Counted from the first letter of the stretch, positions 1,440 to 17,822 are shown. The stretch: 32,000 bases of DNA from Promethearchaeum syntrophicum (GCF_008000775.2 NZ_CP042905.2:2340001-2372000); one strand, 5' to 3'. A program made the numbers and translations. The notes: generated from the sequence alone by a model not told the origin.

Positions 1440-1919
1440 TCACCTTCCAACATCACGTGCGGCTTCTTCAATCCAAGATCCAATATTATATTTTCCCTTA
1501 TCATCAAACCAATCATAAATTGGAACATGATCTGATAAAGGTTGATTATAATCATCATAAACATATTCAAAAGGATTATTTCCCTTTGTATCCCTTTTTC
1601 TATATTTATTTCGCAATTTGTGGATATAAATGCCCAACAATGCATTATTTTTGAGATAACTTTGTTTAATTTCATATTTAATCCATCTTCTATAAGACGT
1701 TTCTTGCCCAATTAAAACTACGGTCACTGAAGTTCCATGAAGAGTTTGATTTATTAGTTTTTTTATTTCTTGATCATTAAAAGTAGGATGATTTTCTTCG
1801 ATCGAACCATCCCAAAAACCAGCAGCTTCTCTTGTTTCAGCATAGTACCAAGAACTTTTGATATATCTTGCTCTCCAAATATCTCTTTGATAATGAAAAC
1901 TAAAAAAAACTACCCTCAT
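1440..1919 (-). CDS. thsB: ThsB-like TIR-like domain protein (DUF1863 / ThsB_TIR family)
   Basis: The N-terminus MRVVFFSFHYQRDIWRARY... and the core TSVTVVLIGQETSYRRWIKYEIKQS...LLGIYIHKL match the hallmark FFSFHYQ.D and VLIG..T..RRW..YEI motifs of Thoeris ThsB proteins. The putative catalytic Glu is included. This rests on recalled family motifs; no search was run. Confidence 0.75.
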   Translation of the reverse strand: MRVVFFSFHYQRDIWRARYIKSSWYYAETREAAGFWDGSIEENHPTFNDQEIKKLINQTLHGTSVTVVLIGQETSYRRWIKYEIKQSYLKNNALLGIYIHKLRNKYRKRDTKGNNPFEYVYDDYNQPLSDHVPIYDWFDDKGKYNIGSWIEEAARDVGR

Positions 1920-2018
1920 AATGTTGAATCATTCCATTTTTTTGATTTTTTGTCTGTTTGATTTAGTTAATTTAAGTTAAAAAATCTAAAAGAAAATAAC
2001 AAATAATTAGTAATCCCA

Positions 2019-2468
2019 TTAAGTTAGATGAACAATCATAAATATTATGCTTATTACCTCGATTGGTAAATAGAAAAGACATTCTGTTGTGGAAAACATA
2101 ACTCCAAAAATATTCTTCACTTTTTGTTTATCTTCTAAGGACGACTGAATTTTTTTAGTATCCATATCAAAGAGATTCTTATTTAATTCTTCCCTATCAT
2201 TATTGAATAAATCCACTTTTTTTTCCCAAAGTTTGCGAAATAACCTTTCCTGTCTTAAATAATACGAATCTAATACCCAAAAAAATCCTATGATAATGAT
2301 TGCATTAAGAAAAAATACCCACTGCAAATTTGCTAAATTAAATGCAATTACTACTGAATATATAGTCAAGGACCAACCTTTGAGCATAAAGGAATTTTGT
2401 GCCATTCGTTTAATGATATCTTGAATCATCAAAAAGTATTTTCTCGCATTTTCATTATCTTGAATCAT
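2019..2468 (-). CDS. Small membrane protein (about 3 TM helices) between two TIR-like genes; candidate effector, function unknown
   Basis: 149-aa ORF with hydrophobic segments GWSLTIYSVVIAFNLA, WVFFLNAIIIIGFFWVL and CLFYLPIEVISIIFMIVHL. It has an amphipathic N-terminal helix and an LDSYYLRQERLFRKLW motif after TM2. It shares the strand of both flanking TIR-like genes. Confidence 0.55.
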   Translation of the reverse strand: MIQDNENARKYFLMIQDIIKRMAQNSFMLKGWSLTIYSVVIAFNLANLQWVFFLNAIIIIGFFWVLDSYYLRQERLFRKLWEKKVDLFNNDREELNKNLFDMDTKKIQSSLEDKQKVKNIFGVMFSTTECLFYLPIEVISIIFMIVHLT

Positions 2469-2551
2469 TTTGTTTTCTCATCTCTACACAAATTTTATTT
2501 TATAAAAAAGATATGATTAATTAATTTTAAATTAATCCATATAACTACCTT

Positions 2552-3034
2552 CTATTCTTCAAAAATATCTTCAATTTCTTGTGCAATATTTGATGTATTC
2601 CAATCTAATAAAAGTAGTTCTCGTTTTATGAATAAATTTGGACCACCACCGGAAGTATTTGGGATTCTTACTCCAATAATTGGAATTTGTTTTGATGTGG
2701 CAACATCCATTTCGTAATCGACATAAGTGCTATTATGTGAATCATTCCCAATTAGACATATCATTAAATCACTCTCAATGATTTTTTCTTTAATATAATT
2801 TTTAACAGCTTGTTCCCCTTTTGCTCTAACGTCGTTTCGAGAAGAAATCGGAATTCCTCGTAATTCACTATTTGGATTTTGAAGTAATCCTTCAAATCCC
2901 TCCCGATAATCACGTTCAGTTTCTCTATAACTAATAAAAATTTTAATATTTTCCATCTCCTTTCTATTTCTAAAATCTTGTTTGAAATTATACATTTCTG
3001 ATATAAAAATATGCTTATTTATTAGAATTGACAT
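2552..3034 (-). CDS. Second TIR-like (DUF1863-type) domain protein
   Basis: Motifs are IKIFISYRE..., ...ESDLMICLIGNDSHNSTYVDYEMDVA...IPIIGVRIP and ...LLLDWN. This is a beta1 FISY motif, an LIG strand followed by a conserved Glu, and a PIIGV strand. The true start may be the internal ATG at 2956 (MENIKIFISY). Confidence 0.65.
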   Translation of the reverse strand: MSILINKHIFISEMYNFKQDFRNRKEMENIKIFISYRETERDYREGFEGLLQNPNSELRGIPISSRNDVRAKGEQAVKNYIKEKIIESDLMICLIGNDSHNSTYVDYEMDVATSKQIPIIGVRIPNTSGGGPNLFIKRELLLLDWNTSNIAQEIEDIFEE

Positions 3035-3146
3035 ATATAAATTTTCTAGTTGTTAGTTAGAAATCCTTCAAAACCCGGTGTTTGAACAATATTCTGAGAT
3101 TTTTAATTGGAATAATAAAATTTTATTATTCAAAACTAACCTTTTG

Positions 3147-4076
3147 TTACTTTTTTCTTGTTTTTGATGATCTTTTGCGTTTTGAGGGTTTATTTTGAGT
3201 AGTTTTATTTGAATTTTTTTTAATATTTTTTGAATTAGTAGACTTTGATTTCTTATTAGTAATAATCTTTGTTTTAAAACGAGATGATTTTTTTATTGAT
3301 TTTGATGATCTTTTGTTGTTTGAGGGTTTTTTTTGTCTAGATTTATTTGAACTTTTCTTAATATTCTTTGATTTACTAGATTTTGATTTCTTGTTTTCAA
3401 TATTCTTTGTTTTCGAAGGAGATGATTTTATTCTTGATTTTGATGATCTTTTTTTGTTTGAGGGTTTTTTTTGTCTAGATTTATTTGAACTTTTCTTAAT
3501 ATTCTTTGATTTTCTAGATTTTGATTTCTTGTTTTCAATATTCTTTGTTTTCGAAGGAGATGATTTTATTCTTGATTTTGATGATTTTCGACCTAATTTT
3601 AATCCTTTCTTATTCAAATCTTTAATTCCTTGTTTAAATCCTGTTTCTAAATTTTCTTTTGGTTTTAAATGTACTTCAGTCTTTTTTTTATAATTTTTTT
3701 CTGAAATGTTTCTGTTTGGAGAATTTCGAGCTCCTTTTTCAAAAATTTCAATTATCGGTTTTTGTTGTCTTATGGCTTTTCTGATTTCTCTTTTAGCCCC
3801 TTCGTGTCTTTTTTCTCCTGTTTTTGATGAGGGAGGAACGATTCTTACCACAACATCAGCATCCTTTACCATTTGTTTTTCTCGTTCATTTGTCTCTGTA
3901 GGACTAGTTTTTTCTCCCTTTTTCCATTTTTTCTGATCATGAATTGTCTTATATTTTGAATCTTTGTCTAGCCTTTCAGAAAATTTATGGGCTTTAGTTG
4001 TATGGCCAGGAGTTTTATTATCGTGAGCAACCATTATTTTTAATGGTTTTTTTTTAGATTTCTTCTTTTTTGCCAT
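3147..4076 (-). CDS. Bipartite protein: N-terminal TIR-like/flavodoxin-like domain plus a ~190-aa Lys/Ser-rich polycationic repeat tail
   Basis: The ORF track gives 3147..4088 with a TTG start; the ATG at 4076 gives MAKKKKSKKKPLKIMVAHD. The N-domain pattern is KIMVAHD ... DADVVVRIVPP...GAKREIRKAIRQQKPIIEIF, which is strand / strand+Glu / PII strand as in the two neighbouring TIR-like proteins. The C-terminal half is 46-aa K/S/N-rich repeats. Confidence 0.6.
   Translation of the reverse strand: MAKKKKSKKKPLKIMVAHDNKTPGHTTKAHKFSERLDKDSKYKTIHDQKKWKKGEKTSPTETNEREKQMVKDADVVVRIVPPSSKTGEKRHEGAKREIRKAIRQQKPIIEIFEKGARNSPNRNISEKNYKKKTEVHLKPKENLETGFKQGIKDLNKKGLKLGRKSSKSRIKSSPSKTKNIENKKSKSRKSKNIKKSSNKSRQKKPSNKKRSSKSRIKSSPSKTKNIENKKSKSSKSKNIKKSSNKSRQKKPSNNKRSSKSIKKSSRFKTKIITNKKSKSTNSKNIKKNSNKTTQNKPSKRKRSSKTRKK
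3150..3590. repeat. Coding tandem repeat, 138-bp unit, about 3 copies (two near-identical, one diverged)
   Basis: The protein unit KSRIKSSPSKTKNIENKKSKS(R/S)KSKNIKKSSNKSRQKKPSN(K/N)KRSS occurs twice. A diverged third copy reads KSIKKSSRFKTKIITNKKSKSTNSKNIKK.... The landmark gtctag recurs at 3335 and 3473, 138 bp apart. Confidence 0.85.
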
Positions 4077-4211
4077 ATTTATCAACAATTGATACCTAAT
4101 TTAATTGATTTAAAGACATATATAAACTACAAGACGACATTAAATAACTAACATTCTTTGTTATGTTAATTTATTTACCATTTCCACTGAATTAACAGGA
4201 TAAAAAAAAAA

Positions 4212-4733
4212 TCACTGATTTTCTAATCTTTTTAATCGCTCATGGAAAACCTTCAAAATTAAAGTTTTGTTCAAATGTCGATTTAATTGTCTACTATGTT
4301 CTCTAAATTCTTCGTTTACTTCTTTAAATTCATTTTCGACAATTGAAATTAGATGGTTAGTGTCATATTCTTTAATTTCTCGATCTTCTCTTATATTTTT
4401 AATATCGTGGTCTGGAAATTCTTTTCCACATTCACAAATATAATAATCAAAATTTCTTGGATATACTACTTCAAAAGCATTATTTTTACAACAATGTGGA
4501 CATTCTCTTCTTTTTGCTTGACTAATTAAATTTGATTTTTCAAGTAATTCTTCCCATTTCTCCTTTGGAGATCTTCTCATAATTTCTGTGAAAAATCTGC
4601 TACAACCTGGATTGAAGCATTTGTAATAATGAGAACCATCAGAAGAACTAGTACTCCTGCCTATCATAAATATTTCGATTGCTGATTGTTTATCGCAATA
4701 TATACATTGAATTTTATTAATCATAGTTATCAT
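4212..4733 (-). CDS. Hypothetical double zinc-ribbon protein with a helical C-terminus
   Basis: 173-aa ORF. Cys pairs are CIYC...CFNPGC and CPHCC...CEC, followed by a charged helical tail. Confidence 0.5.
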   Translation of the reverse strand: MITMINKIQCIYCDKQSAIEIFMIGRSTSSSDGSHYYKCFNPGCSRFFTEIMRRSPKEKWEELLEKSNLISQAKRRECPHCCKNNAFEVVYPRNFDYYICECGKEFPDHDIKNIREDREIKEYDTNHLISIVENEFKEVNEEFREHSRQLNRHLNKTLILKVFHERLKRLENQ

Positions 4734-4912
4734 ACTTTTTTGTTTGTATACTTAAAAAATGTAATCTAAATTCACTCCTCGTTTAATATCTTTTTTTAAC
4801 ATAAAACATCAATAGAAGGATCAAATTGGCATATTTAAACCTATGGTTTGATTATTGAGATTTTACTGGATTAACCAAAGTCATATTATACCCAAAAAAA
4901 TTTCCTGAATAA

Positions 4913-6040: not shown

Positions 6041-6223
6041 TTATATTATATCAATAAAGATTTATTATTCTTTTTTAATATATATTTAAAATTTATCCCG
6101 CTATATTCTCATAAAGGGAATTTCTCATCTTGTAGAATCTCGATCTAACAATAAATCAGAAATATAAAAAAAATGAAGATATAAAGAAGTAAAAAAAAAA
6201 TTAAATTAATAAATTATTCATTA

Positions 6224-6510
6224 TTAGAATTTAATTTCGCCCATCTTGGCGCGCTCGTCAACTAAAGCTTTAACAACCTCAGGATTTGCCAATGTCTTAA
6301 CATCACCAATATCACCCATGGTCACACTTGCCTTCAAAACACGTCTCACAATCTTTCCTGAGCGGGTCTTTGGTAAAGCATCGGTAAACATGATAATTTC
6401 GGGTTTGACTGTTGGTCCGGCAACATTACGAACTTATTTGACAATTTCACCTTTCTATTCTTCAGTTTTCTCCACAACTTGCATAAGAGTGATATATGCG
6501 AAAATTGTTG
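6224..6510 (-). pseudogene. Truncated, stop-containing 3' fragment of an acetyl-CoA synthetase gene (last ~95 codons)
   Basis: It aligns without gaps to 22531..22817, the intact acs 3' end, at a constant offset of 16307. It encodes ...VRNVAGPTVKPEIIMFTDALPKTRSGKIVRRVLKA...NPEVVKALVDERAKMGEIKF*. In-frame stops lie at 6434-6436 (TAA) and 6455-6457 (TAG). Similarity ends abruptly near 6511. Confidence 0.85.
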
Positions 6511-6599
6511 AAAGCACTTAAAAAAGATACATAAAAATGTCAAATTTAATAAATATTGTTAAATATTTAATTTATAAACAAACAATAAAATGAGATAAA

Positions 6600-7652
6600 A
6601 TGGCAATAGAATTAGTTACTTTTGGAGTTAGATTATTTATAAATAGATGGATTGAATCAAAAAAAAAAATTACTCAAAATATCACAAATTATCTTGAAGC
6701 AGCAGCCAGAGATAAAAAAATTTCAAATACAGATTCAATAATATTAAAAACAAAAATTCTTGATATGATTAAGGTTACGGAAAATTTAAATCGCACAATA
6801 AATAAATCAAAGAAAAATATTGATTATATTTCACAAGAATTAATTGAAGATGCAGAACAATATATATCTACACTTAAAGACATAACTAGTAAGTTAAAAT
6901 ATGAATACCTTAATGAATTATTAAAAATGGAAGGCTCTATTAAAGATATTTCAGTAAAGGATTTACAAATTTCTACAGTTGAAGAAGAAATTGCGATATT
7001 ATGCATATTTGTAGCTGACCAATTACTAATTTGGATTTTTGAAGACATTATGGGATTCAAATTTTTAGAAGATAACTATGAAACATCAAGAATTGGAATA
7101 AAATATATTTTAACTGCTAAAAATAATATAGCTTATAATAGAAATGTAAAAGATGAAATTAAATCATATATTTCAAATTATTTAATTTTATATAAAGCGA
7201 TTGCGCAATATTTTCTATGTCGAAATAATCTTAAAAATATGTTGGGAATTACAAAGGAAATTGATACTATAGCAAATTATTTAAATTTTGTAATCAGAAA
7301 AACGGAAAATATTTTAGAATCAAGTGAATTTCTTAATGAAAAGAACAATCACATCTTAAAAATAATAAAAGAACACTCCATTGCTTTATTATGTGAAATT
7401 CAAGGAATAAAATTCAGTTTGAGAAGTTTAAAATCATATAAAAATTTAAACGATTTAATAAATAAAATAAAAAATAATTGGTATTACTCAGAATGGGAAT
7501 TTTTGGGGGAAAAACTAAGTTTAAATTGGGGGAATGATAATCTCGAAGAAAATAATATTGATTATAGTGTTGGAGAATCAGTTAATGAATTTAAAGGTAC
7601 TAAACAAGAATTCAATAATGAGATAAATGAAATAACTCCCTATAATATTTAG
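6600..7652 (+). CDS. Hypothetical all-helical Asn/Ile/Lys-rich protein, first gene of the OLD cassette
   Basis: 350-aa ORF with an ATG start. It ends in TAG at 7650-7652. No recognisable motifs. Confidence 0.55.
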   Translation: MAIELVTFGVRLFINRWIESKKKITQNITNYLEAAARDKKISNTDSIILKTKILDMIKVTENLNRTINKSKKNIDYISQELIEDAEQYISTLKDITSKLKYEYLNELLKMEGSIKDISVKDLQISTVEEEIAILCIFVADQLLIWIFEDIMGFKFLEDNYETSRIGIKYILTAKNNIAYNRNVKDEIKSYISNYLILYKAIAQYFLCRNNLKNMLGITKEIDTIANYLNFVIRKTENILESSEFLNEKNNHILKIIKEHSIALLCEIQGIKFSLRSLKSYKNLNDLINKIKNNWYYSEWEFLGEKLSLNWGNDNLEENNIDYSVGESVNEFKGTKQEFNNEINEITPYNI

Positions 7653-7817
7653 AAAATTAATCATGATAAACCTTATTGCTATGAATGTTATTCGGTGTGG
7701 AAAGAATACAAAAATGCAGATTTCGGAGAATTTAATTCCAATTTATGTGGGAAATATGAGAATTCAAGCATGAATAGACCCCTGTGTTATTACTGTTATA
7801 AAAATATAAGCAAATAG
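7653..7817 (+). CDS. In-frame post-TAG extension encoding a Cys4 zinc-ribbon-like peptide with no start codon of its own
   Basis: Directly after the TAG the same frame reads KINHDKPYCYECYSVWKEYKNADFGEFNSNLCGKYENSSMNRPLCYYCYKNISK*. It has CxxC ... CxxC. There is no ATG, GTG or TTG before the first CxxC. Confidence 0.3.
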   Translation, partial: KINHDKPYCYECYSVWKEYKNADFGEFNSNLCGKYENSSMNRPLCYYCYKNISK

Positions 7818-7850
7818 ATACAAATAATTTAACTAAAATATAACCAAAAG

Positions 7851-8360
7851 GTGAGAATTATTAACGAAGAATTAATTCCCAAAGAGAAAGAGTTTATTAT
7901 TTATAATGGGGGAATAATATTTGCTTTATTATTACCGATATTATTCAAAATTGATGATTATATCCCAAAAGAACTACAAGTTTTTTTTATTTTGGCATTT
8001 AATATGTTATTTATCTCATTTAATTTGGTTTTTCTACGGGCTATAATTCGATTTAAAGGGGGGTTTTTTTTACAAGGAATTTTTTTAACTTTCACTTTTG
8101 GAATGATTTTTCTATCTTCTCTTATATTAGTATATATTTCCCAATTGGATCCAGATACTTCTCGAGTTTCCTTAATTATAACAGGAGTAGGTTTAGCATT
8201 TCCAATTATTAATGCAATTTCTGCAATAGGGAAATTCTTTTTCGAATATATTTTAATTAAAAGTATTCAAAATGTAAGAAATTCAATTAAAAACAAGGAA
8301 AAACATAAAAACACCTTAAAGATTCTTGATTATTTTGAAAAATTTTTATCAAAATCATAA
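7851..8360 (+). CDS. Hypothetical membrane protein (about 4 TM)
   Basis: 169-aa ORF with a GTG start preceded by aaaagg. It has four long hydrophobic segments and a basic C-terminal tail. Confidence 0.55.
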   Translation: MRIINEELIPKEKEFIIYNGGIIFALLLPILFKIDDYIPKELQVFFILAFNMLFISFNLVFLRAIIRFKGGFFLQGIFLTFTFGMIFLSSLILVYISQLDPDTSRVSLIITGVGLAFPIINAISAIGKFFFEYILIKSIQNVRNSIKNKEKHKNTLKILDYFEKFLSKS

Positions 8361-8462
8361 TCGAAATAATTTTTCTAAAACACAATTATACCAAAAAGAT
8401 ATTTCAGAAAATTCATATGTAAAAATGAAAAATAGAATACAATTAACTCAAGTTGGCAAATT

Positions 8463-10610
8463 ATGAAAATCAAACATATTAAAATACAAGGGTATCGATC
8501 TTTAGACAATTTTTCAATAAATCTTTCTGATTATACTGTTATTGTAGGTAAAAACAATGCAGGAAAGTCAAATCTACTTTCTGCGATTAATTCTTTTTAT
8601 CATCCAAAATTATTAACAATAAACGACGCAACTCGCAATGGATTAGGAGATATAATTCGTAGTGAAATTTCAATAAAACTAACCTTTGACAAATTGTTGG
8701 ATTCAGAAAAGCAAAACAATCAGAAATATGTAGAAAACAATCAAATAATTGTTGAATTAGTTGCAAAAGTGAGGGATGAAGAAGATAAAATTGTAGAAAA
8801 ATTGAAACCTGAGCATCATGGATACATAAAGAAATATGATTATGAATTTAGTGATTCAATTGAGTCAAAGATAAGAGAATTAGTTTGTTCTGAAACTGTT
8901 CCATCACAAGATGTTGTTAGGGATGTTCCAATTCTCAATATTATTGCACAAGTTGAAGCTCCGAGTGGTAGAATAACTAAAGAAAGATGGAATAATATCT
9001 TAACGAAATTTATTGATCAAGTACCAGGTATCCGAAAAATTCCAAAGATAGTAAGGGATGATGATCATAAATATCAAGGATTTATCGGCTCTAATTCGGC
9101 CGAAAACAGTGGGAGATGTCTTTTTATTCCTGCTATATTAAATCCATCAGAAAACTTAGATGAAACCAAACAAAATAGTCAAATTTATCGATTAGTATCA
9201 TCTTTGATGAATAAATCTATACCCCAACCATTAGAAGATGAATTTTCAAATTTTGTGGAAAAATTAAATAACGAAAGGGATTCAACTCGCCAAGATCTCA
9301 TTGACCGTTTTGATGAAGAATTAAGGGTCTGGGATACGAAAATTGATATTACTTTAGATAAACCCTCACTTGAGAATGCCTTACCTGTAGCTTTCAAAAT
9401 TAACTTCAACGATGGTGTTCCTACTGATTTAAGACATAAGGGCACAGGTTTACAGAGATATATATTCTTTAAATTCTTGAAAATTTATAATGAATTAATG
9501 CAAGATTCGGAAATTTCTTTAATACTCTTATTTGAAGAACCAGAAGCTCATCTGCATCCCCACTTCCAAAGAGAAATAGCTGAAATCATTGAGGGTTTAA
9601 AATCATCTCTTATCCATCATTATCAAATCATTCTTACAACACATTCACCTCAATTTATCGATGTAACTCGGATGGAGAATCTCTATCGTTTTAGTCGTCT
9701 TGATAATCATTGCACTGATTCCGAAAATTGCTTCTTAGATTTATCTAATATTAATGACAAATTAAAAACTGCATATTTCTTTAATCCTCATGTTCGAGAA
9801 GTTTTTTTTGCTGACAAGGTCATATTGGTTGAAGGAATTAGCGAAATTCAATTCTTTGAATATCTAAAAAATCAAGGTGTAATTTCATTCTCAAATTGTT
9901 CGATTATTGGAATGGGAGGTAAGCAAAATTATCGTTATTTCATACCTATTTTAAATGCTGCAAAAATTCCTTATTGCATTGTTGTAGATGAAGATCCCTA
10001 TTTTGAACCGCATTACAAAATAAAAAATGAAAATTCTTTAAGACTAAAAAGGAGGGATTATTTGATTACGAAAGATATTCTAAACAAAATAGATTCTAAC
10101 TTAGGAAAATTGTGTGTAATTTCCCCCGATTTTGATACCTTGATTGGTACTTCTAAGAATCAACTATCAAGTAGAGGAAAACATATTGCTACAAACTACA
10201 GATTAAAAAAAATATATACATCTGCTTTACCAGATTTTTCAAGTAAGAAAAATGAGTTGGAAACAATAGCTAAAAAAATACTAAATTTTGAGACGATTTC
10301 AGATCAATCAATTCAATTTCCAGGAGAGAATCTTTGGACTCCAGTTGATCAAAATGCTGTGTCTTTAACTGAAATTAATGAAAAATATATCGTAACGAAA
10401 TTAATTGGAGCTATAAAGAATTGGAAAAATTCAATTAAAACATTTACTCCTATTCAAGCGAAAAATTTTCTGATTGAATTGCGTAAACAAACACAAACGC
10501 ATTTAGCTGATCTAAGCAAAAAATTCAGAAAACCTTTGGATGCAGTCTCAGAAAAACATAAATCCACGCAAACTAAATTAGGTAATTTTATTCGTAAAAA
10601 AGATATCTAA
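8463..10610 (+). CDS. OLD-family nuclease: N-terminal ABC/AAA_15-type ATPase fused to a Toprim domain, with a long helical C-terminal extension
   Basis: Motifs are Walker A VIVGKNNAGKSNLLSAI, Walker B LILLFEEPEAHLHP, H-loop IILTTHSP, Toprim Glu KVILVEGISEIQFF and DxD-type IVVDEDP. Confidence 0.85.
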   Translation: MKIKHIKIQGYRSLDNFSINLSDYTVIVGKNNAGKSNLLSAINSFYHPKLLTINDATRNGLGDIIRSEISIKLTFDKLLDSEKQNNQKYVENNQIIVELVAKVRDEEDKIVEKLKPEHHGYIKKYDYEFSDSIESKIRELVCSETVPSQDVVRDVPILNIIAQVEAPSGRITKERWNNILTKFIDQVPGIRKIPKIVRDDDHKYQGFIGSNSAENSGRCLFIPAILNPSENLDETKQNSQIYRLVSSLMNKSIPQPLEDEFSNFVEKLNNERDSTRQDLIDRFDEELRVWDTKIDITLDKPSLENALPVAFKINFNDGVPTDLRHKGTGLQRYIFFKFLKIYNELMQDSEISLILLFEEPEAHLHPHFQREIAEIIEGLKSSLIHHYQIILTTHSPQFIDVTRMENLYRFSRLDNHCTDSENCFLDLSNINDKLKTAYFFNPHVREVFFADKVILVEGISEIQFFEYLKNQGVISFSNCSIIGMGGKQNYRYFIPILNAAKIPYCIVVDEDPYFEPHYKIKNENSLRLKRRDYLITKDILNKIDSNLGKLCVISPDFDTLIGTSKNQLSSRGKHIATNYRLKKIYTSALPDFSSKKNELETIAKKILNFETISDQSIQFPGENLWTPVDQNAVSLTEINEKYIVTKLIGAIKNWKNSIKTFTPIQAKNFLIELRKQTQTHLADLSKKFRKPLDAVSEKHKSTQTKLGNFIRKKDI

Positions 10611-10640
10611 TAAGCCATTCGATTCTGGCAAATTAAATGG

Positions 10641-10750
10641 TGGAAACTAAAAAGAAAACTTAAGAAAACTTAAGAAAACTTAAGAAAACTTAAGAAAACT
10701 TAAGAAAACTTAAGAAAACTTAAGAAAACTTAAGAAAACTAGAAACTTAG
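10641..10750. repeat. 10-bp tandem repeat TAAGAAAACT, 8 perfect plus about 3 degenerate copies (phased A-tracts)
   Basis: Read directly. Perfect units run 10661..10740, with degenerate units on both sides. The array starts 31 nt after the OLD gene stop. Confidence 0.9.
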
Positions 10751-10804
10751 AGATGCATAGATTAACTTGTTATCTCATGAAAAAAATTGAAATTAATTAC
10801 ATTT

Positions 10805-10832
10805 GTTATTAGAATTTCATTACCCCGAGCTT
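10805..10832 (-). pseudogene. 28-nt remnant of the acs 3' terminus (last 7 codons, stop and flank)
   Basis: gttattagaatttcattaccccgagctt versus the intact gttattagaatttaatttcaccgagctt at 22527..22554 is 25/28 identical. It reads KLGVMKF* versus KLGEIKF*. About 35 nt of A/T-rich flank to the left also resembles the flank left of 6224. Confidence 0.65.
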
Positions 10833-10834
10833 CA

Positions 10835-10881
10835 ACGAAAAAATTCGTGCTAATCCCAATTTTCAACACGAAAAAATTCGT
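10835..10881. promoter_or_regulatory. Two identical 14-bp palindromes ACGAAAAAATTCGT, 33 bp apart; candidate operator or recombination-site element
   Basis: Copies lie at 10835..10848 and 10868..10881. Each is ACGAA-N4-TTCGT inside a longer direct repeat TTCAAC(AC)GAAAAAATTCGT. The pair is upstream of the 10938 gene and abuts the acs remnant. Confidence 0.35.
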
Positions 10882-10937
10882 TAAAATACCTTAAATCGCA
10901 CCGCGACAAGTGATAGTTGGTGACAAATGTGAACGCA

Positions 10938-11285
10938 ATGTATGTATTCATCGTTGGGCTGGTGTTATGCGCCCTTGGTATCTTGATGATCTTTGGTCAA
11001 CCGAGTTTCCTCCTTGCGAGATATGAATGGTTTCAAAAATTGTTCCGAAAAACCATGACGAGTGCGAATCGAAAATCACTCTCGAAATTTTATGCCATCA
11101 TGTTTTTGGTGACTGGAATCCCCCTCAGTATTGGCGCCATCGTCGGTTATATTCTACCCGATACCTTCGAATTGGTTTCTCTTTGGTTAGTGTTGGCGGT
11201 GGGGGTAATCGGGATTAATCTTGCCCTTTTTATCAATGTCAGTAAACGATTTATTATATATGAGGGAACAACTCCTTCTGATTAA
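10938..11285 (+). CDS. Hypothetical small membrane protein (about 4 TM)
   Basis: The ORF track gives 10917..11285 with a TTG start. The ATG at 10938 gives MYVFIVGLVLCALGILMIF.... It is visibly GC-richer than the sequence to its left. Confidence 0.5.
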   Translation: MYVFIVGLVLCALGILMIFGQPSFLLARYEWFQKLFRKTMTSANRKSLSKFYAIMFLVTGIPLSIGAIVGYILPDTFELVSLWLVLAVGVIGINLALFINVSKRFIIYEGTTPSD

Positions 11286-11388: not shown

Positions 11389-13374
11389 ATGGCAGAAGAA
11401 GTTAACCGATCCAAGTTTAGTCCAATTCAACAGCTCGTCCTCAATCGGTTAAACCACCAGTACATGCAGTTTGATGATGATGAAACGATTTTATGTGCCA
11501 AATATGTATATGAAATTCCGTTATTTAATCGGTATTGGTTTTATGGTATGTTTTATGGATTATTTTTATTATTTATCGGCCCTCCCTTCTTGTATGTACA
11601 TCTGAACAACGTGAATATGTTCTACCTATATGATATTTTACTCGGTTGTATACTTATTCTCGGATTTTATCCCGCAATGAAACTTAAAAATATCTTAACC
11701 ACGATTACCCTATATATTTTTACAAATAAAGCAACTTATCTGCTCACTCTTTCCCGAAAAGCGGCAACTCCCGAAAAATTAAAGCACCAAGACCTCGATT
11801 ATTGTAATTGTTTTGTAAGACCGAAGCCTTTAAACAAGAAGAAGTATATCTATCGATGTGTCTTCGGAGTGAATTATAAAGATAGTGTGCGCTTTGATTG
11901 TAAAACCCTCACAGAATTTCAATTCTTTAAAAATGTGCTTCAACAGATTTATTTTCGGAATGCCAAACTTTTTCAAAACTCACCCGTAGCTCTCAAAGAA
12001 TTTCCGCATATAGAACAATATAAACAAAACATGATCTTTAAGCCTGAAAAAGTTAAGATTAAAAAAGCAACCAGGATGAAACGTAATAATCCATTTTATA
12101 TTATTTTCTCTCTTATCGGGGGAATTATTGGGATATATAAGCTAAGTATCTTCATTTGGGAGTTAGCCCAGCAAGAAAGTGATTCCTATGTTATGTTTAT
12201 CTTTGTTTTTCTTGGAGTCTTCTTAGTTTTCTCGGTTATTATGGTTATTTTTGATAATTGGAGATATGCTGTGAGGTATCTAAAATCAAACAGAGATCAT
12301 CAAATTGAATTAACTAAGGACCAAATTAAACGAATAATCAACCCAAAAGATCAAGATTTAGATGAACAAGATGTTCATATCCTGCCCTTTAAACAAGATT
12401 TGACTTATGAAACATTTGAAACACGGCCTCGTCGATCTCCCTGGGTAGGAAGTACCAACGACAAATCGTATAAATTAACATATTTCACTCCATCTTTATC
12501 TATAGAAGATATTGTGGAACTTGATGATATAGATGATTTTCAATATGGATTTCAATGGAAATATTATCACTGGCTTGAAGAACAGAACTATTTCTTAGAA
12601 GATCACACAATTGAGAGTGCTTTTGCGAACCTGACACCAAATGACTTCAATGAAACATTAAAACGGGCTTTATTACTCGCTCATGATGCTTATTCTGAAC
12701 GAAATCAAACTTATCTTTCGCAAATTCAACAACATCAACAAAATCAACCAAGAGAAAAATCTTACGAAAACCATAGTATAAAGCACAATCTCTATCCACT
12801 AAATGATTATCGAAAAAATTTAGAAGAAAATGATGAAATTCAAAGCATTTTTCGATCAGGATTAAGCTTTAAAGAATATCTAGATATGAACAAAGTTAAA
12901 CGGGTTGGAATAATTCTCGGATTTCTCATTATAGATGTGCTCATATTTGGGGTTTTGAATAATCAAGGTTTGCTTGATGATATCGGCAATTTTATGTATA
13001 TTTTTACGCCACTCCTGTTTTTTGGTATCTTGGGTATTATGGCAATTCTGATTCTAATCTATTATGTTATTTTTGGGGCTAATCTCAATTACTTTGATTA
13101 TTTAAGTGATAAAAAGCAAGAATACGTACTTACAAATAAAACAATTCAAATTCGTGATCGCTATGATTTTATGGTAATCCCATTTGAAAAAATCAAAAAA
13201 GTTGTCTATACAAAACCCACGAGCTATTATGTCCCGAAAATTATGATTTTTCTCAATGTAGATTCTCTGAATGTGAAAGAAAGGGAACCCTTAAAAAAAG
13301 TTATGTTGAAAACGGTTCCATTGAAATCTCCGATTTTTAAAGCATTGATTGAAATTGGGATGGTATTAGGATAA
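11389..13374 (+). CDS. Large multi-pass membrane protein with repeated 2TM + PH-like (YdbS/YdbT bPH_2-like) modules
   Basis: 661-aa ORF. TM hairpins are followed by motifs such as YIFTNKATYLLT and EYVLTNKTIQIRDRYDFMVIPFEKIKKVVY, fitting the pattern Y.LT..i.i....iP...I..V. The domain call is inference only. Confidence 0.55.
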   Translation: MAEEVNRSKFSPIQQLVLNRLNHQYMQFDDDETILCAKYVYEIPLFNRYWFYGMFYGLFLLFIGPPFLYVHLNNVNMFYLYDILLGCILILGFYPAMKLKNILTTITLYIFTNKATYLLTLSRKAATPEKLKHQDLDYCNCFVRPKPLNKKKYIYRCVFGVNYKDSVRFDCKTLTEFQFFKNVLQQIYFRNAKLFQNSPVALKEFPHIEQYKQNMIFKPEKVKIKKATRMKRNNPFYIIFSLIGGIIGIYKLSIFIWELAQQESDSYVMFIFVFLGVFLVFSVIMVIFDNWRYAVRYLKSNRDHQIELTKDQIKRIINPKDQDLDEQDVHILPFKQDLTYETFETRPRRSPWVGSTNDKSYKLTYFTPSLSIEDIVELDDIDDFQYGFQWKYYHWLEEQNYFLEDHTIESAFANLTPNDFNETLKRALLLAHDAYSERNQTYLSQIQQHQQNQPREKSYENHSIKHNLYPLNDYRKNLEENDEIQSIFRSGLSFKEYLDMNKVKRVGIILGFLIIDVLIFGVLNNQGLLDDIGNFMYIFTPLLFFGILGIMAILILIYYVIFGANLNYFDYLSDKKQEYVLTNKTIQIRDRYDFMVIPFEKIKKVVYTKPTSYYVPKIMIFLNVDSLNVKEREPLKKVMLKTVPLKSPIFKALIEIGMVLG

Positions 13375-15282: not shown

Positions 15283-15738
15283 TTACTTTTTCTTGGATTT
15301 TAAATGATCTCTCACAAAATCTTCAGGGTTTATAATGTCAAATTTATTTTCCCAATTAAAGTGCTTGATATTATACGTAATCAATTTATCAATTAAGGTT
15401 TCACATTCTGTTGCAATAATATAATCTCTAAAATGTTGCCTAAAGGGTAGGGTTCCTCGATTTTTATATGCATTTTCAATGATTCTTGAAGGTTCAAAAT
15501 TTTCCCACTTAATCATTTTACAATCAAATTTATCTAAATCTTCTTTAAATTTATTCCAATCTAAGTTTTTGGTTTTATAAAAATACCCCACTTCTAACTG
15601 AACAATAGTTGGTAAGTAAATTTCGAAATCCGTTGAATATAGGGTTAAATAATTAATGAAATCATAGTTTCTAAAAACATTAGAATCTAACGCAATTTTT
15701 GAAAAAACTATTTTTATTCCTCCAATCCTGTGATCCAT
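15283..15738 (-). CDS. vapC: PIN-domain toxin (VapC-like)
   Basis: Motifs are IALDSNVF (Asp1), TIVQLEVGY (Glu), RDYIIATE (Asp) and LITYNIKHF. It overlaps the upstream RHH gene by 25 nt, which is a typical TA arrangement. Confidence 0.7.
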   Translation of the reverse strand: MDHRIGGIKIVFSKIALDSNVFRNYDFINYLTLYSTDFEIYLPTIVQLEVGYFYKTKNLDWNKFKEDLDKFDCKMIKWENFEPSRIIENAYKNRGTLPFRQHFRDYIIATECETLIDKLITYNIKHFNWENKFDIINPEDFVRDHLKSKKK

Positions 15739-16037
15739 TCACTTAATAGAAAATTATCAATAGTTTGAGACCCATTTTCCAATAATTTTTGATTTTTTTC
15801 ACGTTCTGGGAACCTTTTCCAGATTTTTTTAGTTGTTTCCTCTAATATTTCTGAAATATCAATATTATCGCTTATTGTCATTTTCTTCTTTGGATACTTA
15901 TTTTTAATCATTTTTTCTTCTAAATTTGCTATTGCCTTTTCAATTACTGCACTTTGTGGTATATCTAACAGTGCAGATAATTTTTTTATTTTTTTTCGGA
16001 GCTTCTGATCTACAGCAACAGTAGTTTTAGATGCCAT
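15714..16037 (-). CDS. vapB: Ribbon-helix-helix (CopG/Arc-like) antitoxin, VapB-like
   Basis: The N-terminus MASKTTVAVDQKLRKKIKKLSALLDIPQSAVIEKAIANLEE has the beta-strand plus two-helix RHH pattern. It lies immediately upstream of the PIN gene and overlaps it. Confidence 0.6.
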   Translation of the reverse strand: MASKTTVAVDQKLRKKIKKLSALLDIPQSAVIEKAIANLEEKMIKNKYPKKKMTISDNIDISEILEETTKKIWKRFPEREKNQKLLENGSQTIDNFLLSEWITGLEE

Positions 16038-16945: not shown

Positions 16946-17012
16946 AAAAAAAAAACTAGTTCTGTAGTAATAAAAGATTTGTTATGTATTGCATTAACAA
17001 CTCAAACATATG

Positions 17013-17822
17013 TTACTCCTTTTTTGGCACATTTTTACCTTCCCCACTCCAAGAAATAACTATGAGGATTGAAAGCACCAAAAAAAGTATCGTTCTGATA
17101 AGGGCTATGCGGGGAGAGGGTCCAAATAATTCTCCCGCTATGTTATTCGCAAAATGGGCAATCATCGCGGATATAAGGCTATATTTCGTTTTCTTGAACA
17201 GATAGGTAATAAGAAACGTAAATAGAAACGCTTGACTTAAATATATGTAAAAATCGGGGGTAAACAGACCTAATCCGTTTTGGTATGTGCCAGAAATAAA
17301 AAACAAGGGGATATGCCAGCATGCCCAGAGTAATCCTAAAATGCTACTCGAAACAAACGGAGTTGTGGATTGTAGTAATTTCGGTAACGCAAATGCTCGC
17401 CACCCAAATTCTTCAATCAAAATCGCGACAATCCCAAATCCCAGGATTGTGAAAAGTCCAAGGGGCTCTAGAAAAACTCCAATTATATTATCAAATTGAG
17501 TGGTATACCCGAAAAATACAATATCAAGAAGAATTGCTATACAGACAATTACAATCGGACCGAAAAATGCAATGAGCCCCCAAATCCATGAGAAGCGTTT
17601 TATGTCAGTAAATCTCCTCCAATATTCTGTCCGGTCTAGGTTTTCTTCCTGGAATGAAAGAATGATACCTACCGCCGATGGCGCAATTCCTCCAAGAGCA
17701 TAGAGAAGGAAAAAATACCAGGTTGCAAGAGATCCTTTCAACAAGATTGTTAACCCCCAAAAACTCCAGCTCCAGCAATATGTGAATAAGAAAAAGTAAA
17801 ATATTTTTTTTATCTGTGCCAT
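17013..17822 (-). CDS. CPBP family intramembrane glutamic endopeptidase (CAAX protease / Abi, PF02517-like)
   Basis: Motifs are LIEEFGWRAF (EExxxR), LWACWHIPLF (FxxxH-like) and MIAHFANNI (HxxxN). It is a multi-pass membrane protein. The start was chosen at ATG 17822 (MAQIKK...), because the track's 17957 start adds 45 non-hydrophobic residues. Confidence 0.8.
   Translation of the reverse strand: MAQIKKIFYFFLFTYCWSWSFWGLTILLKGSLATWYFFLLYALGGIAPSAVGIILSFQEENLDRTEYWRRFTDIKRFSWIWGLIAFFGPIVIVCIAILLDIVFFGYTTQFDNIIGVFLEPLGLFTILGFGIVAILIEEFGWRAFALPKLLQSTTPFVSSSILGLLWACWHIPLFFISGTYQNGLGLFTPDFYIYLSQAFLFTFLITYLFKKTKYSLISAMIAHFANNIAGELFGPSPRIALIRTILFLVLSILIVISWSGEGKNVPKKE

Follow-up and report, generated by a model that had tools for sequence, protein, structure and literature searches.

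An OLD nuclease gene of class 1 affinity in a cassette bounded by acs 3' repeats in Promethearchaeum syntrophicum, and the probable status of its two upstream genes as co-passengers

Whether an OLD-family nuclease works together with the genes beside it, or merely travels with them, is the question raised by a locus in the Asgard archaeon Promethearchaeum syntrophicum. The locus lies in a stretch of 32,000 nt (GCF_008000775.2 NZ_CP042905.2:2340001-2372000), which we call the window and from whose first letter all positions are counted. Here a gene for an OLD protein, with an ATPase and a Toprim domain on one chain, is preceded by two co-oriented open reading frames (ORFs), namely ORF1 and the putative membrane-protein gene ORF2, and all three are enclosed by partial copies of the 3' end of acs, the acetate-CoA ligase gene. 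An earlier note, made from the sequence of this DNA, had taken the three genes for a self-contained and horizontally moved module, in which an OLD nuclease with a membrane partner would represent an undescribed class context. The features on which that proposal was built are all present in the window: ORF1, a zinc-ribbon-like segment behind it, ORF2 with its four transmembrane (4-TM) segments, the 715-aa OLD protein, the acs repeats and a tandem array (Table 1). We nevertheless consider it probable that this is a stand-alone OLD of the class 1 type carried in an acs-3' cassette, with ORF1 and ORF2 as co-passengers and not as obligate partners.

OLD proteins are divided into classes by genetic context, class 1 being encoded by a single gene, class 2 occurring with GajB, class 3 with retrons, and class 4 being split into AriA and AriB (PMC10568477). 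The earlier note had seen no helicase, retron or PARIS-type partner at this locus, and our domain scans and an Rfam search of the window, which gave no matches, likewise found none. No helicase domain is present in any scanned ORF of the window, as would be expected of a class 2 GajB. No reverse transcriptase domain lies nearby to suggest a class 3 retron, and there is no separate or split Toprim gene nearby as in class 4, the ATPase and the Toprim domain being joined in one ORF.

The affinity of the protein was judged by pairwise and profile scores. The best PADLOC model for it is 'Old' (2e-57, 193 bits), compared with AriA (2e-39) and the best GajA model (3e-34, 116 bits); this run, which the earlier note had proposed, gave no match for ORF1, ORF2 or the zinc-ribbon-like segment. 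Among solved structures, the best sequence match is the class 1 OLD of Thermus scotoductus (TsOLD; 6P74, 2e-19), followed by GajA (1.5e-8) and PtuA (4e-5). Among the sequences of Dataset EV1 (PMC12796447), Heimdall and Loki proteins labelled "Class 1" scored 103 and 87 bits, respectively, across the whole ATPase domain; class 5 Cran1 reached 44 bits, by local matches only, and clade U4 40 bits. The NCBIfam model retron_eff_Eco8 gave 74 bits, under its 250-bit cut-off. On these pairwise and profile comparisons with class representatives, the OLD protein is class-1-like.

The motifs of the protein were compared across 22 members of its clade. Walker A (G29-S36, GKNNAGKS) is nearly invariant, while the ABC signature (KGTGLQR), the Walker B/D-loop (F357-P366, LLFEEPEAHLHP) and the H-loop (H394-S395, THSP) are invariant, and so are E457-G458 and D509-E510-D511 of the Toprim domain, which align with the Toprim domain of TsOLD. 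All catalytic motifs are intact, and the enzyme looks active as far as its sequence tells. We infer that the protein most likely acts alone, as a nuclease against viruses or plasmids, in this Loki-type Asgard archaeon. It may form a dimer or oligomer gated by its ABC-type ATPase, which carries a dimerisation insert, and its Toprim domain would then cut or nick foreign nucleic acid through two-metal catalysis, a mode of action that has been shown for TsOLD and P2 Old (PMC10568477). P2 Old was recently also reported to cleave tRNA (PMC12445682).

The window OLD belongs to a clade of about 50 Asgard-specific proteins that share 36-50% identity with it, after which scores drop to 28% identity. Its nearest relatives are annotated as Promethearchaeota or Odinarchaeota, and in a neighbour-joining tree of the Asgard clade it forms the basal branch together with a single other protein, P0002. 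A profile search of genome contigs with the clade alignment gave no Asgard loci, its matches all being remote bacterial OLD genes of 21-30% identity. The protein resembles class 1 members (P2 Old, TsOLD and the class 1 OLD of Vibrio cholerae) in being one polypeptide with an insert-bearing ABC ATPase and a C-terminal Toprim domain (glutamate, DxD), in its best sequence matches and in having no conserved neighbour. It differs from them in sharing no more than 23-26% identity with archaeal sequences of class 1, in belonging to an Asgard-specific clade set off from the rest by a large score gap, and in its length (715 aa versus 528 aa in TsOLD). Moreover, class 1 genes are described as lying away from other defence genes, whereas the window OLD is found in a defence-type island. 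Gabija GajA (class 2) has the same ATPase-Toprim architecture and its hidden Markov models (HMMs) match the protein, but no GajB/UvrD helicase is seen in the window neighbourhood and the GajA scores are lower than those of class 1. What the window OLD seems to contribute is an Asgard member of an OLD type already known, and not a new class of defence system in which OLD is paired with a membrane protein.

The gene neighbourhoods of the relatives, whose inspection the earlier note had suggested, show no linkage of the upstream genes to OLD. When ORF1, ORF2 and the zinc-ribbon-like segment were compared by tblastn with 28 Asgard-clade OLD loci collected for context, none was found at E ≤ 1, and no OLD gene occurs in any of the six contigs examined that carry an ORF1 homologue (L005-L008, L173 and L174). 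A TM protein directly upstream of OLD was found in no other clade member; the upstream genes in L169 (98 aa) and L171 (198 aa), for instance, are without TM segments. One of the OLD genes (L002) is solitary, and those of L185 and L186 are located beside a Type ISP restriction enzyme. With the upstream side of P0002 excepted, the window OLD is a single gene without conserved partners, as is class 1 by its context. The earlier note had named in advance what would speak against a three-gene system, namely that the upstream genes show no linkage to OLD genes in any other locus, and this is what the survey found. Since the three genes were found together nowhere else, they do not make up a new three-part system, nor a new OLD class context as had been proposed.

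When the region was shuffled 300 times, no stop-free run as long as ORF2 (at least 169 codons) appeared, the longest being 148. ORF2 has no match in PHROGs, PADLOC, Pfam or NCBIfam, and no homologue was retrieved by a word search of 5.8 billion clusters or by an exhaustive HMMER search of 1.84 billion representative proteins. Four other HMMER matches consist of multiple stretches inside much larger proteins and were read as compositional. ORF2 is, from its sequence, a lineage-specific 4-TM ORFan, and because it is without any homologue nothing shows selection for its pairing with OLD.

ORF1 is likewise without a match in Pfam, PADLOC, PHROG and NCBIfam, and it defines a small family. Seven homologues, all 350-361 aa long and 37-48% identical to ORF1, form with it an eight-member family that has a strongly conserved N-terminal helix, MAxELxxxG…F[IN]xRW. 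An AlphaFold2 (AF2) model built from the eight members is entirely helical (mean predicted local distance difference test score, pLDDT, 69; predicted TM-score, pTM, 0.67), and no PDB entry resembles the fold at E ≤ 0.001. The best-shaped PDB matches to the model are Bro1 domains (TM-score 0.3-0.43, E 0.27-0.9), which are too weak to use and serve as a lead only. The idea that ORF1 could be a diverged NurA, by analogy to the operons of sister OLDs described below, was rejected. The homologue contigs display five distinct neighbourhoods, with HNH and Smr genes, a 1404-aa protein, a Pycsar-like pair of PycTM and cyclase, a convergent McrBC and DUF998. The family is seen to recur beside defence genes (McrBC, the Pycsar-like pair, HNH, Smr and GIY-YIG), so that ORF1 appears to represent a helical Lokiarchaeial family that elsewhere resides without OLD in variable or defence-type neighbourhoods, and here it would be a co-passenger.

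The zinc-ribbon-like segment has no ATG, GTG or TTG ahead of its first CxxC, and no match in PHROGs, PADLOC, Pfam or NCBIfam. Stop-free CxxC-(10-45)-CxxC patterns occur four times in the window against a mean of 0.13 per shuffled window, while the 54-codon open stretch itself is expected by chance. Three ORF1 homologues that were translated past their stops end at the same position as ORF1 and have no zinc ribbon downstream. Read-through or recoding of the ORF1 TAG as a conserved feature was therefore rejected, the ribbon being missing in 3/3 homologues and TAG ending several other genes of the window. The segment is probably a relic of another gene.

Table 1. Features of the OLD cassette, of its boundaries and of the acs region (positions in the window)
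Feature	Position	Strand	Description
acs remnant 1	6227-6511	-	pseudogene fragment; last 95 AcsA codons (residues 581-675); tblastn 81% identical; two in-frame stops
ORF1	6600-7652	+	350 aa, all-helical; small Lokiarchaeial family
Zn-ribbon-like CxxC…CxxC segment	7653-7817	+	54 codons in the ORF1 frame, directly after its TAG stop; KINHDKPYCYECY…RPLCYYCYKNISK
ORF2	7851-8360	+	169 aa; four hydrophobic segments (Kyte-Doolittle), charged C-terminal tail
OLD-family ATPase-Toprim nuclease	8463-10610	+	715 aa; AAA_15 1e-38, OLD-like_TOPRIM (PF20469) 3e-15
Tandem array	10652-10740	none	AAGAAAACTT, period 10, 8.9 copies, 100% identical; phased A4 tracts
acs remnant 2	10780-10832	-	core only: last ~9 codons and ~25 nt of downstream flank
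23-nt repeat, two copies	10835-10890	none	each with palindrome ACGAAAAAATTCGT; in the interval that separates remnant 2 from the DUF3784 gene; kept in L169
DUF3784 membrane protein	10917-11285	+	first gene of the next cassette; protein 86% identical to its counterpart in L169, which likewise adjoins an acs-3' core and a gene of the OLD clade
IS110-family RNA-guided transposase	20211-21746	-	185 bits in NCBIfam (cut-off 140 bits); 511 aa, unusually long
Intact acs (acetate-CoA ligase)	22531-24558	-	NCBIfam TIGR02188 802 bits, above the 725-bit cut-off

The borders of the unit are as exact as the earlier note had described them, with one acs 3' remnant on either side and a perfect phased A-tract array at the end of the cassette. 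The intact acs gene, which had escaped the earlier note, lies 12 kb from the OLD cassette, and its 3' end is the sequence that both remnants copy. Remnant 1 is 83% identical in nucleotides to 22498-22818 and also keeps about 35 nt of the downstream acs flank (6191-6226), and remnant 2 agrees with the 3' end of the intact gene in 25 of 28 bases, where 100 shuffles gave an expectation of 0 matches. The window contains three copies of the acs-3' core, all on the minus strand (6191-6247, 10780-10832 and 22498-22554), which flank the inserted DNA as direct repeats. The resulting order is remnant 1, OLD cassette, remnant 2, a second island of 11.7 kb and intact acs. The exact same OLD protein was found on a contig from run DRR199588, which stems from independent sequencing of this organism and breaks off inside the tandem array.

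The same architecture recurs in a second genome. L169, a 205-kb metagenomic contig from a related genome that carries the OLD homologue P0041, contains three more acs-3' copies, and two of its remnants (62 and 25 codons) are in direct orientation. The six acs 3' termini in the two genomes (in L169 at 1900-4800) comprise the full gene and copies of 287, 186, 75, 28 and 28 nt with one core of about 50 bp, and all six have in common AAGCTCGGTGAAATTAAATTCTAATAA and a T-rich flank. The cassettes bounded by these cores measure 0.8-11.7 kb, those of L169 0.8-1.8 kb. A module of about 510 bp, made up of the acs-3' core, the two palindrome-containing repeats and the DUF3784 gene, is shared by both genomes at 89% nucleotide identity, and its homology ends abruptly at both sides. 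The palindromic repeats might function as an operator or in recombination. Distal to the junction of core and DUF3784 module, each genome has an OLD-clade gene, but the two are only 36% identical, lie in opposite orientation and have different small neighbours. That different OLD alleles occur with different passengers at the same spot makes it unlikely that ORF1 and ORF2 are obligate partners. The proposal of a horizontally moved module hence survives in part: a cassette bounded by acs-3' repeats and recurring in L169 is supported, while a functional three-gene system is not.

The unit has the look of a 4.3-4.6-kb cassette that entered the genome at the 3' end of acs. We infer an order of events in which insertion took place there repeatedly, each event restoring the gene and moving the earlier inserts, together with a partial copy of the 3' end, further away from it. 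On this order the OLD cassette, as the distal insert, would be the older one, in agreement with the two stop codons in remnant 1. Such insertions may have been mediated by a site-specific recombinase acting in trans, by Campbell-type homologous recombination of circles carrying acs fragments, or with the involvement of IS110. The IS110 transposase is the only recombinase between the remnants and acs, and is located 785 bp from the acs stop codon. This 785-bp stretch, from the IS110 start to the acs stop codon, looks non-coding, and Rfam gave no matches at the IS110/acs junction.

Genomic islands are known to accrete in tandem at the 3' ends of target genes, for instance the islands at tRNA genes, which leave partial duplications of their target. 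The acs locus resembles such islands in that direct repeats of the target 3' end bound successive inserts, with the intact gene at one end, and in the decay of older remnants, as in remnant 1. It differs from them in that the target is protein-coding, that no tyrosine or serine integrase was found, and that the remnants vary in length (about 28, 75, 186 and 287 nt). The short cassettes of L169 are closer to an integron-like array than to tRNA-gene islands. A more far-reaching interpretation, about which we are doubtful but which deserves some weight, is that Loki-type Asgard archaea use the acs 3' end as an accretion site of an integron-like kind but without an integrase, where the core marks off small swappable cassettes and OLD alleles are exchanged, with ORF1, ORF2 and OLD as one mobile cassette and ORF2 possibly as a lineage-specific membrane partner. 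If this were true, the pairing of ORF2 and OLD would be a further OLD context beside the HerA-linked operons of the sister clades. The acs 3' end appears to be a recurrent cassette-insertion site in at least two genomes, and possibly a hotspot for new archaeal defence genes.

Many relatives of the window OLD reside in operons. In five loci, L003 (6001-9796), L004, L089, L091 and L101, the OLD gene is followed by a HerA/DUF87 ATPase gene, at a distance of 60-150 bp in four of them and of about 1.9 kb in L091. The OLDs of this HerA-followed sub-clade are 664 aa long (one is annotated as Odinarchaeota), and the DUF87/HerA-like ATPase has about 555 aa. A tight operon of NurA-like, OLD and HerA genes is found in another 10-11 loci (L092, L094, L095, L097-L100, L102, L103 and L105; e.g. 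L100:3165-11429), where the NurA-like gene ends 18 bp before OLD. The encoded proteins are a NurA-like protein of 377 aa, an OLD of 685-695 aa, a HerA of about 530 aa (best PDB match 4D2I) and an Mre11 of 436 aa (best matches 4HD0 and 1II7), the gene for the last following HerA in the four loci that extend this far. In L100, the sole locus examined beyond Mre11, a gene for a 697-aa Rad50/SbcC-like ATPase comes next, with a 4-nt overlap with the Mre11 stop, and HEPN and CARF genes border the operon. We considered that OLD might replace Rad50 in these operons and rejected it, because L100 has the Rad50/SbcC-like gene as well. As the operon is complete for the herA-mre11-rad50-nurA type and contains OLD in addition, OLD appears to be an addition to it. 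No description of HerA-linked OLD operons was found in the literature searched; they hint that some OLD nucleases cooperate with the DNA-end resection machinery. The window OLD belongs to the same clade as these sister proteins, shares 36-41% identity and the same motifs with them, but differs in having no HerA, NurA-like, Mre11 or Rad50/SbcC neighbours, and none of these partners is present anywhere in the window.

Some observations weigh against a stand-alone OLD with co-passengers. Most other sub-clades are not solitary but belong to HerA or NurA/HerA/Mre11 operons, so that a partner-dependent ancestry is possible. ORF1, ORF2 and OLD share their orientation and a very low GC content at third codon positions (GC3, 0.15-0.20), which fits a common origin and remains compatible with co-transcription. 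The contig of P0002, which at 50% identity is the sole other member of the branch, begins 16 bp before the gene and does not cover its upstream side. As to the cassette itself, domain scans of the stretch from 6.2 to 22.5 kb detected no integrase domain, whether of the tyrosine or of the serine type. The second and third of these points can be turned into an argument that the trio, or at least ORF2 with OLD, is a real lineage-specific defence system, in which the 4-TM protein would anchor or gate OLD or be a membrane effector, and ORF1 would be a sensor or regulator. The genes are also compact and enclosed as a unit by the acs-3' repeats, and a precedent exists in class 5, that is, Cran1 (SiRe_0086) of the Sulfolobales, which is vertically inherited, essential and encoded in a conserved putative operon with the membrane-protein gene SiRe_0087 (PMC12796447). 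An OLD gene with a membrane-protein neighbour is, by the same precedent, not undescribed as the earlier note had supposed. We find such a system unlikely, given that the genes co-occur in none of the 28 OLD-clade loci or six ORF1-homologue contigs, that ORF2 is an ORFan, and that in no other clade member is a TM protein encoded immediately before OLD. Furthermore, the gaps are loose, with 198 bp between ORF1 and ORF2, the relic zinc-ribbon segment included, and 102 bp between ORF2 and OLD, compared with the 18 bp from NurA-like gene to OLD in the sister operons. In the study of Cran1 itself, deletion of the membrane partner was possible and had no antiviral phenotype (PMC12796447).

Cran1 is relevant in a further way, since it is an archaeal OLD with a non-defensive role as a cell-cycle or chromatin nickase (PMC12796447), and the window OLD could in principle be a housekeeping protein of this kind that works with a membrane protein. 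The two have in common an archaeal OLD gene adjoining a small membrane-protein gene; the likeness of ORF2 to SiRe_0087 is one of description, and ORF2 matched no public protein in an exhaustive search. The similarity to Cran1 is low and local only, the window OLD falls outside the Sulfolobales clade U11, and its gene sits in an inserted cassette within a variable island of TIR, toxin-antitoxin-like and IS genes. The 36%-identical allele at the same spot in the relative is moreover the opposite of the vertical inheritance of the essential class 5 gene, and taken together these differences make a Cran1-like role very improbable. A quite improbable origin, although less so, is that of a stripped-down descendant of an OLD dependent on HerA, NurA, Mre11 and Rad50, which would have lost its neighbours at a junction after the stop codon and would now be inactive or served by partners elsewhere. 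The five OLD-HerA loci, the 10-11 loci with NurA-like, OLD and HerA genes, the Mre11 gene in four of them and the Rad50/SbcC-like gene after it in L100 all speak for such an ancestry. The position of the tandem repeat and acs remnant, a rearrangement junction right after the OLD stop where HerA would be expected, does so too. Nevertheless, the window OLD and P0002 are basal and outside the HerA-linked sub-clades, P0002 has no HerA downstream either, and the OLDs of L002, L169, L171 and L185 are also without HerA and NurA. The catalytic motifs are all intact, and between ORF1 and the NurA-like family hhalign shows no relationship (probability 0.2%). A stand-alone, class-1-type OLD with ORF1 and ORF2 as co-passengers thus seems to us the most plausible reading of the locus.

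The surroundings of the cassette are of a defence type, with two ThsB-TIR genes (1440-3034), a ribbon-helix-helix (RHH) gene and a CAAX protease gene nearby. Scans of viral contigs gave 0 matches for the ORF1 family and only distant relatives for the OLD clade, and hence no sign of a viral cassette. A sigma-70 promoter and terminator scan returned hits at chance level only, with a bacterial model that does not apply to an archaeon. The two ThsB-type TIR proteins to the left of the cassette (1440-1919, minus strand, 7e-23; 2552-3034, minus strand, 2e-12) form a Thoeris-like pair, and no recognised ThsA is located nearby. They are followed by an ORF of 313 aa (3147-4088, minus strand) that is very rich in lysine and serine and is based on a tandem repeat of 138 bp (3.2 copies at 90% identity). 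On the other side of the cassette, a 661-aa membrane protein (11389-13374, plus strand) has three pairs of TM helices, and its residues 210-299 give a weak PADLOC match (E 0.0017) to the SLATT domain of a reverse-transcriptase (RT)-associated effector, so that it could be a pore-forming effector. At 15283-16037 (minus strand) the RHH gene (107 aa) overlaps a 151-aa ORF in a layout like that of a toxin-antitoxin pair. The window has 26-31% GC over most of its length and 35-45% between 17 and 24.5 kb, and the genes of this block at 17000-24500 (CAAX protease, MFS transporter, DUF4760, IS110 and acs) have a GC3 of 0.35-0.43 versus 0.15-0.29 elsewhere in the window.

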